A stretch of 64,000 bases of DNA from a virus, in IMG/VR virus record IMGVR_UViG_3300029922_000017, positions 1 to 64,000 of that record; one strand, written 5' to 3'. Within the stretch, counting starts at the first letter, position 1; the number at the start of each line of letters is the position of its first letter. Positions 14,648 through 55,192 of the stretch are shown here, piece by piece. A program made the position numbers and the translations under genes. Below the pieces are notes generated by a model that saw only the letters and a program-made list of their open reading frames with translations, ran no database searches and was not told the origin of the DNA.

Positions 14648-14731
14648 TGAGGAAGATAATCGAATCGAACGATTGCCTTTTACGACAGGAGAGTTTTCGA
14701 GACTCATTTCACGCCATGTGACCTATCTTCC
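14648..14731 (-). tRNA. tRNA-Ser(CGA)
   Basis: Loop CTCGAAA, variable arm, GTTCGAT T-arm. Confidence 0.8.
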
Positions 14732-15743: not shown

Positions 15744-15826
15744 TGGTGATGTGAATGGGATTTGAACCCACATTTTCATTTCCAATTATGCGCTGAGAAT
15801 TTAGGAAATTCCGCCATTACCACATC
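15744..15826 (-). tRNA. Atypical tRNA-Arg(CCT), no D-arm
   Basis: Acceptor GATGTG/CACATC-ACCA, loop TTCCTAA, T-arm GTGGG-TTCAAAT-CCCAT. Confidence 0.6.
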
Positions 15827-27071: not shown

Positions 27072-27145
27072 TGGAGCAATGGGTTAGGTTTAAACTAACA
27101 AGTCCTTCAAAGAAAGAAGGCATTTTATCATTAAATTACAAATGC
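27072..27145 (-). tRNA. Degenerate tRNA, nominal TCT anticodon
   Basis: Cloverleaf spacing and CCA, but loop TTTCTTT and mismatched acceptor. Confidence 0.45.
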
Positions 27146-27935: not shown

Positions 27936-28025
27936 TGGCGGTGTTAACGAGACTTGAACTCGCTATGTGCATATTATGCAGTCTTCCGTGACAGGGAAGC
28001 GGCTCGACTCTTTACCTTCAACACC
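27936..28025 (-). tRNA. tRNA-Asp(GTC) with long variable arm
   Basis: Loop CTGTCAC, GCCA end, variable arm TGCAT-AAT-ATGCA. Confidence 0.85.
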
Positions 28026-28080: not shown

Positions 28081-28890
28081 ATGAATGAAATTGATTATAA
28101 TTTAAATCCATATAAATGTGATGCTTGCCAATCTACTATTCCATATAAAAAAGGAAGGCGCAAATCTAAGTTAGGGTTGAAATTCTGTAATAATTTGTGT
28201 CAAGGTGTTTATACCGAAACATTGAATAAGGAAAATTACTATACAAATCCACTATGTTGTAACCAATGTAATAAAATTATTCCATATAATAATAGAAAAT
28301 CAAATGGAAATTTAAAGTTTTGTAGTAATTTATGCTCTAATACGTATTATAAATATAAAAAATTTACGCCTGAAGTTTTACAAACGATGAGAGAAAAATC
28401 AAAACTAATCCAACCAAAACTATGGGATTTAACCGCTAGGATTGCACACTCCAAAATAATGAAACAAGTTGTAAATAACCATCCAAATTCATATTCTAGT
28501 AATAACATTTGCGGCAGAGTTAAATCAATTCCTATTATTGATAGTCTCGGCAATACTTCTAAATGTCTCGGAAATTGGGAATTGTTGGTATCTAAATTCT
28601 TAACTGACAATAATATTCGATGGACTAACACCATCAATACAGTATTTAATTATAATTGGAATGGGGCTGTCCATAGATATTTCCCAGACTTTAAATTACT
28701 TGATTATACTGGTGTATATATTGAAGTTAAGGGATACGAACGGGAGCGAGACCGAGAAAAATGGAAACAATTCCCGGATACATTAATAATTATTAAATTG
28801 AAAGAAATTAAAGAAATTAAAAATGGAACATTTCAATTGAATATTGGTTGCGGAGCACGGGAGTCGAACCCAGTATCTCTAAGCTTATGA
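28081..28890 (+). CDS. Zn-finger + PD-(D/E)XK homing endonuclease
   Basis: Repeated C..C/FC...C units; YFPDF...YIEVKG; 3' end overlaps tRNA on the opposite strand. Confidence 0.8.
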   Translation: MNEIDYNLNPYKCDACQSTIPYKKGRRKSKLGLKFCNNLCQGVYTETLNKENYYTNPLCCNQCNKIIPYNNRKSNGNLKFCSNLCSNTYYKYKKFTPEVLQTMREKSKLIQPKLWDLTARIAHSKIMKQVVNNHPNSYSSNNICGRVKSIPIIDSLGNTSKCLGNWELLVSKFLTDNNIRWTNTINTVFNYNWNGAVHRYFPDFKLLDYTGVYIEVKGYERERDREKWKQFPDTLIIIKLKEIKEIKNGTFQLNIGCGARESNPVSLSL

Positions 28891-28924
28891 GGCTTGAATG
28901 ATTATTCCGTTTCACTCCTCCGCA
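28845..28924 (-). tRNA. tRNA-Met(CAT), initiator-like acceptor
   Basis: TGCGGAG/CTCCGCA-ACCA, loop CTCATAA. Confidence 0.85.
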
Positions 28925-29915
28925 ATTAAATATTCATCCACCCATTAACACTAATGACTTTATTTTTTCTTAACAAACGGCGATACGTTGTGTGGACTAC
29001 TGAATTATTTAAATTATTGTTACCAGAATTCCGTTATGTCACTGGTTCTATCTCATTATTCACTCAACATACAAACGAATTACTTCTCCGCCGAGTCTTT
29101 ATGATTGGTCTATATCATCCAATCGTTATAGATAACACTTCAATTGTGCTTTCTTACGTCTATTACACTAAACAATAAATTCTTTCAGCTTGCGACTTGA
29201 ACGCTATATAATACTCCCACCACGCAGGGAACGGAGACTCACGTAACTAATGTCACTTTAATCAATAAATTATTTCTAATTATTACCCACCGATGGCCGT
29301 ATTCTCTCGAATCAACTTGATTGATATTTCGTATTGTCTTACCGCTTATACTACTGAAATTATTTCCAATTCGTCTGGGTCATATGTAGCAATTCCGGTT
29401 GAGAATTGAATATCATAACATAACCCATGACTGTCGTGGCTTGCTATAATATAGCCACATCTTCCAACATACTTCAATCTTTCAACTTGACCTTCATCCG
29501 TATAATCCCGCTGTTCAATTTTATTAGCAACTTGAACATCTATATGTTGTTTAATTTTCATATCAATTACGAATTAGTTCTCTCACGATTTCCTCGCCCG
29601 ATTTCCAGCCCCATTTTGGAGTTTGTATATCTTTTAATTGTTCCGATAAATCATTATTTTGAGTCTTCAATTGAAGATTCTCATCTTTCAATTTTTCATT
29701 TTCCGTTTTTAAAATATTGTAAAGATACTTTAGCTCGTAATATTCTCCACAAAAATTATCAGATTCGTAATTCATATTGACATGCTACCATAATTAGAAA
29801 ATAAGTCAAGAGAATAAAATCCTAATGAAGCCGCTACTATATAATGTTTATAACCATCATATTTTGCCTTGTTTAAACCATCCTATGGTCACATCATTAT
29901 TTTACGTAAATTATA

Positions 29916-29992
29916 TGGTCCCGTATGGCAGAATCGAACTGCCGCTGTTAATTTTTCAAACTAACGTGCTGACCACTCTACACTATTACGGG
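29916..29992 (-). tRNA. tRNA-Phe(GAA)
   Basis: Loop TTGAAAA, CCA. Confidence 0.85.
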
Positions 29993-30007
29993 ATACTAAA
30001 TTATTAA

Positions 30008-30084
30008 TGGTGGCAATGACAAGATTCGAACTTGTATATCTTTTCCTTATGATGGAACTGCAATACCAATTATGCTACACTGCC
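30008..30084 (-). tRNA. tRNA(CAT), Met or Ile2
   Basis: Loop ATCATAA, CCA. Confidence 0.8.
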
Positions 30085-30195
30085 ATAATTTATATTAAAT
30101 TCAAAGAATTCCACCACGCATTTAGATTTTTAATTTCTTGTTTTTTACAATGTAAAGCGGAAATGGAAATTGACTCCATTTAGCTCTATCTTTAT

Positions 30196-30269
30196 CCGTC
30201 TCCTATGATTGAGTTGAACAATCTCCACAAGTTCCCAAAACTTGTATGCTACCGGAACACCTATAGGAG
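30196..30269 (-). tRNA. tRNA-Pro(TGG)
   Basis: C1-G72, loop TTTGGGA. Confidence 0.85.
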
Positions 30270-30689
30270 TAAAACTTTTACCATGAGAAGCCGCCATATC
30301 ATTTTCACCGATAGTCTAAGCACCGGTTTACCGGCGAGTAATCTCTTCCGAAACTTTACTTCCTCATTAGCATAAATTATTTAATGCTTGGGACTTTTAC
30401 CCCGTTCTTTACTCATATCGAGCGACATAAACTCAATAGCGTTTTCTTTTATATAAAATTGTCAATTAAATTTCGGTATGAAAATCAATTCTCCATCAAT
30501 TTTCAATGTTCTATCTATAATATCACAAACTTCACAGGGAAGTGGGTCTTCCATTCGTAATTCATCTGATTCATATCCCGGAATTTCTCCTCTAAAATGT
30601 TTACATGTTTTCTTTTTATTCATACTGTAAAATATCATATATATGTTACAGCTACATGTCAGTTATGTTACATTATCGTAACATTAAAT

Positions 30690-30850
30690 TGGTGGACGTA
30701 TCGTGCCTCTTACGGTTGATTGGTTACAACGAGTTATTAGGGCTTATTCCAATAACATCAAAATTAACTTGTTAATAATAGGACAACTACTATTAACAAA
30801 TAAAGGTGCATTACTGTCCTTTGAGTAACCCTCGATGGTGCGCTTTGTCC
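30690..30850 (-). ncRNA. Putative CCA-ended structured RNA (about 160 nt)
   Basis: Closing stem GGAC/GTCC-ACCA, internal hairpins TTGTTAATAGTAG/CTATTATTAACAA and GTTATT/AATAAC, ATTT trailer. Confidence 0.5.
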
Positions 30851-31231
30851 ACTAGAATTGCAATTCTAATAAGCGTTAAGGGTTATACTTTACTATGTTT
30901 GGTCCATTGTTTTTCACAATCCAAACAATTAAAACAAACCCAATACTGATCATCATTAGGGTCAAAATTACCAGTGTTCGAATCATAATTTTTAACCGCA
31001 TTTACATGCGGACATTTAGCTTGAATCTTGTCTTTCCGTTTTTGTAAATTTGCTATTTGTTTGTTAATATCTAGAATTGATTGTTTCATTCTGATATTAT
31101 GACATATTTGTTATTAATGTCAAGCTGAAATAGTTTTCCAAGGATTTCACAAATGTTCTCTCTTTTCATGCCTTACTCAGAGAATCTATCTTGTTCCACT
31201 AGGTTAACCGAAAATGATTAACCATATAAAT

Positions 31232-31306
31232 TGGTGGGCGGGTATACTCGTCATTATGACCTTTACTCGTAACAGATTTCTCCTACGAAGATTTCAGACG
31301 CCGCCC
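31232..31306 (-). ncRNA. Putative tRNA-sized CCA-ended RNA without cloverleaf
   Basis: GGGCGG/CCGCCC-ACCA closing stem, 75 nt, no T-loop motif. Confidence 0.55.
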
Positions 31307-31320
31307 ATTCTATAAAAATC

Positions 31321-31592
31321 AACTGTTACATAGATGTTACAAGACTTAGGAGGATGCTTACATACTCATAATTCAGCTTAGTATGCCTGCTGCTACGTAA
31401 CAGTTTAAATTGTTTTATATATGACATTCATTGCGCTTCGAATAGCACTTAACGGCTAATTGCCATAGACGTTTCTATTCCAAGATTCCCGCCATATATA
31501 AATTGTTTACTAGCCCTCATTCCTAATGAGTAGCCTCAATACAATGTATCTCAGTTGTTTCGTAAGTTAATGACTGCCGCAACCTTAGTAAA
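31321..31592 (-). ncRNA. Three tandem ~85-90 nt stem-closed RNA units
   Basis: Closing stems AACTGTTAC/GTAACAGTT, TTTATATATG-like/CATATATAAA and TTTACTA/TAGTAAA separated by AAATTG spacers. Confidence 0.45.
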
Positions 31593-31879
31593 TTGTTTAC
31601 ATGTAATCGGTATCATGAATGAATTTTTTACAACCACATAATTCACATTTTGAAATTATAATATCTAAATCATAACTGGCTCCGCACCCGATACATTTTT
31701 TATAATTTTGTAAACGTTTTTTAACAGTTTCTATTGGGCGATTACAAAATTCATCAATAGTTCTTAGCTTATTTGTTTTCATAAATTGGCACTTACTCTC
31801 AAGTTGTCAATCATCACAATCCCCAGTTGGAACTGGTTACTTGTTACGGAACGATTTGCCGTTTATTTAATAAATTAAA

Positions 31880-31967
31880 TGGTGGGCGTGGCAGAATTCG
31901 AATCTGCGAAGTCAATTAAGACGAGAGATTTACAGTCTCTTGGTTTTAACCACTCACCCACACGCCC
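31880..31967 (-). tRNA. tRNA-Tyr(GTA)
   Basis: Loop CTGTAAA, variable arm, CCA. Confidence 0.92.
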
Positions 31968-31975
31968 ATTAAAAA

Positions 31976-32488
31976 TTACCCATAATAAAAATCTCTCCAA
32001 TTTTCCGGAATATATTTGTCTAGCGATGTTAATTTATCCTTATCCAGTTTCTTTGTATGCATCATTCTATGATGATTGGGACATACATATGCCAAATTCC
32101 AATGTTCATCTGCATTGTCTATTTTCTTTCCATTTATATGGTGAATATCACACGTCGATTCTTTCCATCCACAAATACAACACCCGATATTTAACCGTTT
32201 AAGTATTTTACATGCAGTTCTAGAACTTACGCTTAAAATAGAATCAATTCTTCCTTTATGTTTTCCTATTGAACTATTGATTCCGTTTATACTTCTTTTT
32301 TCTGGGTGTTTATCCCAATATCGTTTAAGTCCATGTCCTATATTTTGTTTTGCTGCATCTGACAGCTTTCGGTGTGAATTATTATATGTTGATGCACATG
32401 ACAAACTACAAAACTTTCCTCTGTTATTACCAGTTGAATATTTCGTTTCAAATTCTTTATTACAATTTACGCAATTTAATGTATTCAT
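31976..32488 (-). CDS. HNH homing endonuclease
   Basis: CCICGW...DIHHI.......NLAYVCPNHH. Confidence 0.85.
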   Translation of the reverse strand: MNTLNCVNCNKEFETKYSTGNNRGKFCSLSCASTYNNSHRKLSDAAKQNIGHGLKRYWDKHPEKRSINGINSSIGKHKGRIDSILSVSSRTACKILKRLNIGCCICGWKESTCDIHHINGKKIDNADEHWNLAYVCPNHHRMMHTKKLDKDKLTSLDKYIPENWRDFYYG

Positions 32489-32662
32489 ATACTATAAATA
32501 TACGTGTAGTAGTCGAATCTATGATTTATTTTGTAAATTTTAACAGTTTTCCCCGCTACCCCTACGGAATAATCTTGCATATTAAAGTAATCTAACCTCA
32601 ATTAGATACAGCCATTACTATGTTGACCGAGTTCACTCGCTCTGTGTTTATATAAACATACT

Positions 32663-33388: not shown

Positions 33389-33463
33389 TGGCTCCGAGGG
33401 CAGGTTCTGCCCCTGCACCATCTTTCTTAACAGGAAAGTGGACTACTGTTATCCCACCTCGGA
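33389..33463 (-). tRNA. tRNA-Asn(GTT)
   Basis: TCC start, loop CTGTTAA, GCCA end, unusual T-loop GGCAGAA. Confidence 0.85.
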
Positions 33464-33666: not shown

Positions 33667-33969
33667 TGGTTCCTTATTCCGTGTCCCTTCCACGTCTCCG
33701 AAATTACGCATCATAGATAGTAGGGGCGTTAATAAGAAATTGAATTACAAAATCATGTTACGGATAGCAGTTATACAGGAACACTGTTGTCCTACACATC
33801 AATGAGATTTCCGTGCTGTATCACACTCTCAAATGGATTTTGTAAATTGTTTTCTACTTTATAATGTAAAGGCTTACTCACCAGCAAACGAGGCCAGTGG
33901 TTGGGATTCCAACCCATTACAACCGTAGCATCAGCCGTTTTTTAGTTATCGGTTCATTACTAATAGAAA
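33667..33969 (-). ncRNA. Three tandem stem-closed RNA units (33667-33738, 33741-33845, 33848-33969)
   Basis: Closing stems TTCTTATT/AATAAGGA-ACCA, TACAAAATC/GATTTTGTA and TTTCTA/TAGAAA, each with an NCA-ATTT 3' end. Confidence 0.5.
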
Positions 33970-33970
33970 T

Positions 33971-34056
33971 TGGTGGATGCTAGGGACTTGAACCCTTTCT
34001 TTCAACTAAGTTATAGTTGATGTGCTTCCTTGGAATCTCACCTACACCAAGCAACC
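33971..34056 (-). tRNA. Atypical tRNA, enlarged D-loop, nominal AAC (Val) anticodon
   Basis: T-loop TTCAAGT, CCA, loop ATAACTT. Confidence 0.5.
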
Positions 34057-34438: not shown

Positions 34439-34508
34439 TGGAGCAAGAGAATAGGGTTGTCTATTATTTCCACTCGGATGAGTGGCGTTCTCATTAAACT
34501 ACTCATGC
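34439..34508 (-). tRNA. Degenerate tRNA-like RNA
   Basis: Acceptor plus TCCA, anticodon-position hairpin CCACT/AGTGG, no consensus T-loop. Confidence 0.4.
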
Positions 34509-54787: not shown

Positions 54788-55192
54788 TGGTGGAAATGCT
54801 CGGAATTGAACCGAGGTCTTGAATACTAATTCATAACGATACTACATGGTTATTTCATTTTAATTTAATCTTGATTTTTTTAATGAACAATACATTTCAA
54901 GCATTGATAATTTATTGAGTTATCAACGATCATATAATTTTAACTATATGCGGTTTACTCACTATTAGAGCAATAAGAATTTTAATGAGTATCCAGTCTT
55001 ATTTCGGCAACTAGACCAATTCTAATTCGGGCGTATTGATTTCTTCATTCAGAAAGAATGAAAAATCCAACGCTGCAATCTGCGCTAGGCGGTTTGCATT
55101 TGGTTTTTAATTATATTTTTAACGAGGCCATATAATAAACCCTCCCCATGCATCGTTATGTCAAAGAATTCGGTCGATACCATTACATTCCC
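54788..55192 (-). ncRNA. ssrA: tmRNA
   Basis: GGGAATG/CATTTCC-ACCA with G3:U70, GGTATCGAC D-like loop, T-arm CTCGG-TTCAATT-CCGAG, resume GCA and tag ORF at 55011-55097. Confidence 0.9.

Follow-up and report, generated by a model that had tools for sequence, protein, structure and literature searches.

A candidate small-RNA gene with a tRNA-like end and its four stem-closed neighbours in the tRNA array of an uncultured phage

The transfer RNA (tRNA) array of the uncultured phage held in IMG/VR as record IMGVR_UViG_3300029922_000017 includes five stem-closed units, here called A to E, that are not tRNAs, and one of these, the 75-nt unit B, is apparently the genuine gene of a small RNA belonging to a so far uncatalogued phage family with a tRNA-like end. 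The stretch that we analysed, referred to below as the window, comprises 64,000 nt and corresponds to bases 1-64000 of the 138,917-bp record; its GC content is 33% (0.333), and the completeness of the record as estimated by CheckV is 39%. All 32 tRNA genes called by ARAGORN lie on the minus strand, between 10.8 and 40.5 kb, and the units must therefore be read as reverse complements. A previous reading of the sequence alone (the sequence-only reading) had proposed that all five units are cut out of the array transcript in the manner of tRNAs and persist as discrete small RNAs. This proposal is borne out for B to the extent that it is a member of a conserved family, but A, C, D and E are backed only by single-sequence folding and are without relatives. 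The roles that it suggested for the products (decoy, sponge, antitoxin mimic or aminoacylation substrate) are conjectural. The explanation that we consider probable is that the stretch of 900 bp is a mixed non-coding part of a minus-strand tRNA operon, in which B is a genuine, phage-only RNA gene whose product is matured in a tRNA-like fashion, E, D and C form its leader, and A is a 3′ untranslated region (UTR). The units, which lie among three small open reading frames (ORFs), are as follows.

30690..30852, minus strand: unit A, a 163-nt multi-hairpin ending in CCA-AUUUAAU, between the ORF68 stop codon and the ORF58 promoter; closing stem (30852..30690) GUGGAC/GUCCAC, then CA
31232..31306, minus strand: unit B, 75 nt, member of the conserved phage small-RNA family with a tRNA-like end; closing stem (31306..31232) GGGCGG/CCGCCC, then ACCA
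31321..31405, minus strand: unit C, 85 nt, with two UGUAACA copies, followed by GAUUUUUAUAGAAU, which is the leader of B; closing stem (31405..31321) of 13 bp including one G-U pair
31411..31502, minus strand: unit D, a 92-nt irregular rod of about 31 pairs with a (UA)-rich closing stem, ending in ACA-AUUUA; closing stem (31502..31411) of 13 bp including two G-U pairs
31504..31592, minus strand: unit E, 89 nt; closing stem (31592..31504) of 7 bp

Unit B and its family

The relatives of B were gathered with sequence patterns. A pattern holding only its acceptor stem, the ACCA and the AUUU occurs at 13 places in viral_contigs, only four of which are tRNAs; among the nine others are two relatives, L033 (identical to L034) and L037, whose inner ends are as in B and whose middles differ. 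A second pattern, built on the inner core and leaving free the outer four acceptor pairs and two positions of a palindrome in the bulge, matched five places in viral_contigs and ten in metagenome_contigs. After duplicates and two GC-rich false hits (L048 and L050) had been dropped, the family numbered 11 distinct sequences including B, 70-96 nt in length, all from uncultured phage and metagenome contigs. A stricter pattern with a constrained acceptor was also tried and discarded, as it added only two GC-rich false hits. The family model R2 was built from the resulting alignment (A3) and gives B a score of 69.2 bits (E 2.8e-16); B is itself among the sequences from which R2 was built, and its membership rests on the alignment and the pair counts. 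In the whole 138,917-bp record B is the only match to R2, the core thus being absent from A, C, D and E. This core can be written G-N-N-CGGCG-YY-UGA ... AUAAU-RR-CGAG-N-AU-N′-CCCG-N-N-C-N-CCA and includes two helices, P1 and P2, and a palindromic bulge, all of which are present in B in the following arrangement.

31301..31306, minus strand: 5′ strand of P1 (G1-G6), preceded by the leader ...AGAAU
31294..31300, minus strand: 5′ strand of P2 (C7-C10) and the invariant U11 G12 A13
31258..31293, minus strand: variable hairpin of 36 nt (31-57 nt in relatives)
31249..31257, minus strand: invariant A50-U54 (AUAAU) and the 3′ strand of P2 (G55-G58)
31242..31248, minus strand: 7-nt bulge, consisting of A59 and the palindrome G60-U-A-U-A-C65
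31232..31241, minus strand: 3′ strand of P1 (C66-C71), discriminator A72 and encoded CCA, with AUUUA next

The six pairs of P1 (positions 1-6 with 66-71) are standard in 11 of 11 sequences, as are the four pairs of P2, which continues P1 directly on the 5′ strand; UGA and AUAAU are invariant throughout the family, and the hairpin between them varies in both sequence and length (31-57 nt). The ends are nearly as constant, with a leader that finishes in U (position -1) in 9 of 11 members, G at +1 in every member, a discriminator base that is A in eight, G in two and U in one, a CCA tail in ten (CCU in the remaining one) and AUUU directly after it in ten. Covariation of the closing stems, on which the sequence-only reading had made its case depend, was looked at in the homologs of B and found there, with compensatory changes in both P1 and P2: all 143 pair cells of the 11 sequences are standard, and 5 of 13 pairs have changed on both sides. 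Pair 2:70 is GC in eight sequences and AU in three, pair 3:69 is UG in six and GC in five, and in L037 the UA/CG of P2 is swapped to CG/UA, whereas a control in which the 3′ partner was slid by 1-3 columns gave 31-48% paired cells and zero double changes. RNAalifold, unaided, recovers the identical P1 and P2. The two members L033 and L053 have nearly the same hairpin, with a compensatory change of C-G to U-A between them, and their bulges have AU as against CG; to judge from the alignment, these differences are recent, independent compensations. Since the U3-G69 pair of 6 of the 11 members would be an A-C mismatch on the other strand, the tRNA strand is also the strand of the RNA. Readings of UGA/AUAAU as a K-turn, a T-loop or a loop E were compared by eye, and none fitted.

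The bulge on the 3′ strand has the form A-G-N-A-U-N′-C, and its hexamer G60-N61-A62-U63-N′64-C65 is palindromic in 11 of 11 sequences, although its N positions were unconstrained in the search pattern: GUAUAC occurs six times, GCAUGC three times and GAAUUC twice (N/N′ being UA, CG and AU). This always-palindromic bulge is the most unusual feature of the family.

The comparisons also show where the RNA resides. All 12 loci have the unit within a tRNA array, on the strand that carries the ARAGORN tRNA genes, in several cases within about 10 nt of a tRNA, and R2 finds it once in the present record (G000) and once in each of four other virus records (G004-G007). Two of these, of 369 and 225 kb, are complete genomes that have terminal repeats and lack the 886-aa marker protein of the lineage to which the present phage belongs; the RNA is therefore spread across unlike phages. 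It appears to be new to the collections that were searched, as neither B nor, at E≤0.1, any of eight relatives' units had a match in Rfam 15 (4227 models), a search of 50,697 GenBank phage records with the 31-nt 3′ core of B returned only chance hits at E=10, and the family pattern, run against one genome each of 185,579 prokaryote species, gave a single chance hit in a coding-like, GC-rich contig. A literature search covering listings and abstracts, with most subscription journals outside its coverage, did not find the family.

Several arrays that carry the unit, or ends like it, hold further items of interest. Two other groups of non-tRNA units share the GGGCGG/CCGCCC-ACCA-AUUU ends and have different interiors (L032, L035, L039 and L043, of 82 nt; L040 and L041, of 81 nt). 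In L034 (8278-9686), and identically in L033 and L057, a 1.37-kb insertion is bounded by a 36-nt direct repeat within which the first 13 nt of the unit fall; the insertion contains a 57-aa ORF with a double CPxCG motif, a 225-aa HNH-like ORF and a TnpB-like fragment, so that a mobile element seems to have landed in the 5′ end of the RNA gene and to have left an intact copy. At L049 477-771 there is a sub-threshold match to raiA RNA (53 bits, E 1.8e-10) directly upstream of the B-like unit, and at L055 490-753 a sub-threshold match to manA RNA (29 bits) in the same array as such a unit.

Maturation, dimer formation and comparison with known systems

The sequence-only reading held that the units are matured like tRNAs into small RNAs, and for B the signals fit: U(-1), G(+1), an acceptor-like stem, NCCA and AUUU are all in place, while processing and stability are what we infer from them, together with the transcription, the enzymes, the mature ends and any function discussed below. 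U(-1)/G(+1), a stacked helix and RCCA are features that bacterial RNase P uses on tRNA and hairpin substrates, and B has all of them as sequence features (its stacked helix numbering about 10 pairs). An AU-rich trailer directly after the CCA is the first 3′ cut site of tRNAs in maturation of the E. coli type. Neither inspection nor a promoter scan found a sigma-70-like promoter between C and B, and B is thus most likely a product of read-through from upstream, its transcription passing through ORF61, E, D and C. That it would be read as part of an array transcript is also suggested by the other phages, where the unit follows tRNAs at spacer distance, and it is likely, at the least, that E, D and C, which lie upstream of B, are transcribed as its leader.

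The proposed course of events is then as follows. Host RNase P would cut the 5′ end of B at U(-1)/G(+1), and the 3′ end would arise by cleavage in the AUUU trailer and trimming back to the CCA, as for the neighbouring tRNAs. What results would be an RNA of 75 nt, without decoding ability, whose tRNA-like acceptor end is presented to the enzymes of the cell; its constant core would be the working part, a platform on which a protein or another copy of the same RNA could dock. E, D and C would constitute the folded 5′ leader of the B precursor and at the same time the 3′ UTR of ORF61, and A the folded 3′ UTR of ORF68; cleavage at the same kind of (C/A)CA-AUUUA junction might free all four as fragments.

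As the two halves of the bulge palindrome are adjacent (leaving a loop of 0-2 nt), they cannot pair within one molecule, and pairing between two copies of the RNA would be the simplest reading of the aligned hexamers; a protein site at the DNA level is unlikely, because the palindrome changes its identity. For 7 of 11 members the minimum free energy (MFE) dimer predicted by RNAcofold pairs through the palindrome, and the 6-bp duplexes alone give -3.6 to -8.0 kcal/mol; the cofolded dimer does not count as evidence, however, since any hairpin gains energy as a duplex in such a calculation. Dimerisation through a covarying palindrome has, to our knowledge, not been described for a tRNA-like phage RNA. 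A more speculative extension, to which we give only a low probability, is that the family acts as a bivalent mimic of tRNA ends: a symmetric dimer paired through the hexamer would display two acceptor-stem/CCA tails and two phage-specific hairpins, and might either absorb or misdirect host factors that read such tails (nucleases of the Cas12a3 kind, for example) or scaffold a phage protein. A hairpin with an acceptor stem and CCA has been shown to suffice for cutting by the tRNA-tail nuclease Cas12a3 (PMC12851939). B offers a hairpin-plus-CCA end of this sort, by functional analogy only, and on that analogy a role as tail decoy is conceivable.

The closest counterparts in placement are RNAC and RNAD of phage T4, which are likewise non-tRNA small RNAs encoded on the tRNA strand of a phage tRNA cluster, and which two sources describe as detected RNAs without a known role (PMC3014915, PMC9697503). 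In the T4 record (AF158101) both are located at the end of the tRNA cluster; rnaD (species 2, 119 nt) is separated from tRNA-Arg by a spacer of 1 nt and reads ...GCGCACC and then AAAUUA, and rnaC (species 1, 139 nt) lies 6 nt beyond it; the ...CACC-AAAUUA junction of rnaD is akin to the ...CCCACCA-AUUUA of B, and a homing endonuclease gene, of the GIY-YIG type, is present in the T4 cluster. Homology to rnaC or rnaD was sought in the present array, where nhmmer found none at E≤10 and blastn-short gave only matches of 11-20 nt elsewhere that are due to chance or to T-arms. Moreover, rnaC keeps a tRNA-type T-arm that B lacks, and, unlike the T4 RNAs, members of the B family combine a variable hairpin with a constant core in which the bulge is palindromic; the T4 RNAs were detected by experiment, whereas B is known here from its sequence. 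The comparison thus suggests that B resembles RNAC and RNAD in its placement and junctions, is unrelated to them in sequence, and has an architecture of its own.

Compared with tRNA itself (RF00005) or with acceptor minihelices, B has in common the G1 after a leader ending in U, the acceptor-like stem, the unpaired base, the encoded CCA and the trailer of the neighbouring tRNAs. It differs in having six instead of seven acceptor pairs, in lacking D, anticodon and T arms, and in matching no tRNA model; its helix continues on the 5′ strand and carries a 7-nt bulge in the 3′ strand, which is the mirror image of the acceptor/T-stem stack. Large ornate RNAs such as GOLLD and ROOL also associate with phage tRNAs, and those of which traces appear in the arrays of relatives (the raiA-like and manA-like matches) are structured and non-coding, as B is, but members of the B family, at 70-96 nt, are much smaller and have a tRNA-like end.

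Small non-tRNA RNAs in phage tRNA clusters have long been known from T4 species 1 and 2, the role of which is unsolved after fifty years. A second and unrelated family offers a better handle on the question, as it recurs in giant uncultured phages and has a defined core, clear covariation and a palindromic bulge; the core indicates which nucleotides to mutate, and GUAUAC, GAAUUC and GCAUGC provide natural compensatory controls. For annotators, the lesson is that there are genuine RNA genes in phage tRNA arrays that escape both tRNA finders and Rfam, and equally that folding alone should not turn the neighbouring stem-closed spacers into genes.

Alternative explanations and the other four units

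One alternative, suggested by the position of the units in tRNA slots with tRNA-like junctions, is that all five are tRNA genes that have decayed or diverged strongly. Individual units add to its appeal: D holds a UUCGAA and a loop bearing GG, the MFE structure of E is a four-way junction with a 7-bp closing stem, and B has the first five acceptor pairs, A73 and the CCA in common with the nearby tRNA-Tyr. The array of G003, a relative at the protein level, moreover contains many tRNAs with odd T-loops that ARAGORN misses. The sequence-only reading had nevertheless described the units as non-cloverleaf, and this description held up in every search. ARAGORN, Rfam and R1, a covariance model of 19 of the phage's own tRNAs, gave no minus-strand tRNA match in any of the five. 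At gathering score Rfam (searched with Infernal) finds only tRNAs and one tmRNA in the window, and between 30100 and 32000 it has nothing over any unit beyond noise even at E≤10. ARAGORN with relaxed scores, introns or mitochondrial mode made no minus-strand call within any unit, and R1 with its filters off gave 62 matches at E≤10, none of them inside a unit on the minus strand, although it recovered weak or odd tRNAs down to 9 bits in the G003 array (L017), which served as a control of its sensitivity. An alignment of B with tRNA-Tyr shows the ends alone in common, the interior of the B relatives is a single hairpin (a D, anticodon or T arm is seen in 0 of 11), and the B-like acceptors of L054 and L049 do not track tRNA-Tyr. 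By these comparisons decay from tRNA genes appears largely refuted as far as detectable homology goes, and we regard it as most improbable for the five units together, while an ancient tRNA origin of the acceptor end of B may still be entertained. The narrower idea that B mimics its neighbour tRNA-Tyr was set aside, since the B-like acceptor shares only two (L054) and three (L049) leading bases with the tRNA-Tyr of its own array. Coding is equally unsupported: no ORF of at least 40 aa spans the units under TAG=Q or table 4, and they are non-coding under table 11 too.

A further alternative concerns B, namely that its conservation is that of a DNA-level element, such as the target of recombination or of a homing endonuclease, or a protein operator, and not that of an RNA. 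The bulge hexamer is indeed a palindrome in DNA, and the direct repeat around the insertion with the HNH-like ORF in L034 takes in the first 13 nt of the unit. We think this reading very improbable nonetheless, because compensatory changes alter the sequence of P1, P2 and the hairpin yet leave their pairing intact, the U-G pairs are strand-specific, the varying identity of the palindrome (GUAUAC, GAAUUC, GCAUGC) is ill-suited to a fixed protein site, and the unit is always found on the tRNA strand with junctions of the tRNA type.

For the other four units the alternatives are considerably stronger, as can be seen from the general properties on which the five had been grouped. All are closed by stems, as the sequence-only reading had it, and these stems were located, but by themselves they do not exceed chance: by our estimate a closing stem of 6-7 bp with a free 5′ boundary arises by chance at roughly 4 of 10 sites, and only B is raised above that level, by comparative evidence. 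The NCA-AUUU ends are found in four of five units (A and B terminate in CCA-AUUUA, D and E in ACA-AUUUA) but not in C, where GAUUUUUAU follows. The related statement that this trailer is that of the true tRNAs is right in so far as it is the commonest one and too broad in that it is not universal: A?UUU comes after only 8 of those 25 tRNAs in the window whose CCA is encoded, the background on the minus strand being 61 in 836 CCA sites. In the G003 array, with about 45 tRNA and tRNA-like genes and a GC content of 43%, it follows 17 of 19 CCA-ended ARAGORN tRNAs, and because this is so in spite of the higher GC content, the trailer appears to be a kept signal in such arrays. As regards an acceptor stem, a discriminator base and a 3′ CCA, unit B has 6 bp, an adenine and CCA, unit A has 6 bp overlapping its own CCA, D and E end in ACA, and C has no such end. 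The claim that the units are richer in GC than their flanks was confirmed: their values are 0.36-0.49, while the three small ORFs that flank them have 0.27-0.31 and the window has 0.333. Fold z-scores, computed on boundaries chosen at the stems, are -3.72 for A, -2.37 for B, -1.96 for C, -5.06 for D and -0.81 for E; D and A stand out, B and C are marginal, and E is unremarkable. As the verified T4 rnaD reaches only -0.83, weak values do not exclude function. A sliding 80-nt z-score scan was uninformative, true tRNAs scoring near 0 when off register.

A number of results weigh against the explanation that we prefer, some of them touching B and others the remaining units. The fold z-score of B is modest, its family consists of only 11 sequences, and because these were collected with exact patterns, the invariance of positions 5-13 and 50-66 is partly forced, so that the free observations of the alignment are the outer acceptor pairs, the two palindrome positions and the hairpin only. 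The meaning of the palindrome is a guess, since it cannot pair within one molecule. R2 found no copy in the 65-kb fragment of the protein-level relative G003. The sequence of the record occurs in peat and riverine metagenome runs, and of the 19 runs in which all or part of the stretch occurs, none is registered as RNA; over 29900-32100 the contigs of four other runs show no difference from the window wherever they cover it, so that there is no microdiversity to be used (a run with a small share, X11, matched only around tRNA-Tyr). The closing stem of C together with the U-run just upstream of B might terminate some transcripts, although a terminator scan did not call it. Inverted repeats of at least 11 nt within 200 nt number 153 in the 64 kb, closing stems thus being frequent, and the plus strand of A folds with a z-score of -4.04, so that folding favours neither strand. 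Finally, A, C, D and E have no homolog in the arrays of relatives, at the loci of the B family, in four whole virus records or among the GenBank phages (E≤10).

The last three of these observations also favour a rival that we rate somewhat short of an even chance, namely that A, C, D and E are ordinary AT-rich intergenic sequence, made up of UTRs, spacers and DNA control sites, whose hairpins have arisen by chance or serve a generic stabilisation of mRNA. The closing stem of D is a self-complementary (UA)n run, E has the weak z-score given above, 4 of the 11 TGTAACA copies in the record cluster at 30650-31341, with two around the ORF58 promoter, and a perfect 16-bp palindrome adjoins A. Against such an account stands D above all, for which 0 of 200 shuffles fold as well and whose fold is kept in context; B, C and D fold better on the minus than on the plus strand and have G-U pairs in their stems, the GC content of the units is above that of the flanking ORFs, three of the 12 minus-strand copies of AACAAUUUA mark the boundaries of E, D and C, and the weak z-score of rnaD shows that a low value is compatible with function. 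A more specific proposal is that D, and perhaps C, are processing or stability signals of the RNase III type that separate the ORF61 message from the RNAs downstream, as in the early transcripts of T7. The D rod, with about 31 pairs and internal loops, lies between a small ORF and an RNA gene, as this would require, but it is not conserved and has no uninterrupted helix of about two turns; we hold this proposal to be unlikely.

Considered one by one, the four units differ in what can be said of them. D has an MFE of -28.4 (plus-strand z -2.17) and keeps its fold in a 376-nt context; the folding calculations make a convincing case for a long, irregular minus-strand hairpin, which could be a processing or stability element. 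E, for which 41 of 200 shuffles fold as well and whose closing stem is lost in the context fold, is by the same calculations not distinguishable from background. In C the 5′ strand can pair with either of the two UGUAACA copies, and a U-run follows the unit. The scan for intrinsic terminators, which covered 29800-32600, gave two sites, both on the plus strand, and the 13-bp long-range stem of C with GAUUUUUAU falls outside its definition of a terminator. A (MFE -43.8), a strongly folded element resembling a 3′ UTR, has no match in R1, R2 or Rfam.

Short repeated sequences lie between and within the units. E is flanked on both sides by the 12-mer GUAAACAAUUUA, one copy preceding it and the other separating it from D, and AUAAAACAAUUUA stands between D and C; AACAAUUUA has 12 minus-strand copies in the whole record against two on the plus strand. 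A search of viral_contigs with the motif GUAAACAAUUUA ... AAACAAUUUA found eight places without further similarity, which is about the number expected by chance, and a promoter reading of (U)AAACA was rejected, there being no -10 element at 16-18 nt. TGTAACA occurs 11 times in the record; the four copies at 30650-31341 are on the minus strand, the direct copies are spaced 22 and 11 nt apart, and each of the two pairs (30644-30689 and 31324-31404) is accompanied by one inverted TGTTACG. Two of the copies lie on either side of the -35 element and spacer in the ORF58 promoter, and the set is a candidate operator, whose helical-repeat spacing hints at control at the DNA level. Separately, a perfect 16-bp DNA palindrome, TAGAATTGCAATTCTA, occupies 30853-30868, between the ORF68 stop codon and A and abutting the latter; as a centre of 2 nt leaves too little room for an RNA hairpin, it is more likely the site of a dimeric protein.

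Gene order and the wider phage

Read 5′ to 3′ on the minus strand, the gene order is HNH endonuclease ORF, tRNA-Tyr, ORF61, E, D, C, B, ORF68 with its promoter, A, ORF58 with its promoter, tRNA-Pro, tRNA-Met and tRNA-Phe. The features with mapped positions are these.

31976-32488, minus strand: HNH endonuclease ORF
31967..31880, minus strand: tRNA-Tyr
31597..31782, minus strand: ORF61, with two CxxC pairs, directly upstream of E, its stop codon lying within the first GUAAACAAUUUA
31123..31096, minus strand: ORF68 promoter, near-consensus and sigma-70-like (TTGACA-16-CATAAT, 11 of 12 matches)
30883..31089, minus strand: ORF68, between B and A
30662..30634, minus strand: ORF58 promoter, near-consensus and sigma-70-like (10 of 12 matches)
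54788-55192, minus strand: tmRNA, found by Rfam

The ORF68 and ORF58 promoters are very close to the respective ATGs, and their messages would be leaderless or nearly so. ORF61 had no match in Pfam, ORF68 matched only itself among 5.8 billion proteins, and a search of viral_contigs yielded no relative of ORF61, of ORF68 or of the LigA-like protein. A comparison of the 1401-nt region with the GenBank phages gave tRNA-Tyr as the only match. The best relatives at the protein level are three relatives of the 886-aa protein, with 30-33% identity, and on this evidence the phage seems to be nearly an orphan.

The record encodes a T4 Rnl1-like RNA ligase and a LigA-type DNA ligase. The gene of the former lies beyond the window at 92263-93360 of the record (PF09511, E 7e-11) and points to tRNA repair. 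The domain of a CCA-adding enzyme was not found in the 139-kb fragment, a negative that is weak at 39% completeness.

Further tRNA-like and non-tRNA units occur both in the window and in the array of the relative. R1 finds eight additional minus-strand tRNA-like places, scoring 19-38 bits, that neither ARAGORN nor Rfam at gathering score calls (27075-27145, 28848-28924, 34442-34508, 33392-33463, 15747-15826, 33974-34056, 14650-14731 and 27939-28025). A second cluster at 33667-33969 on the minus strand comprises three non-tRNA units, each closed by a stem, whose z-scores are -2.0, -1.6 and -2.1; the R1 and R2 models have no match there, and the plus strand of its middle unit has a z-score of -3.5. 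The G003 array (L017, corresponding to G003 46000-65620) contains many cloverleafs with unusual T-loops that ARAGORN missed, for example GGGGCAGUACC, and at L017 14876-14997 a 122-nt unit that ends in CCA.

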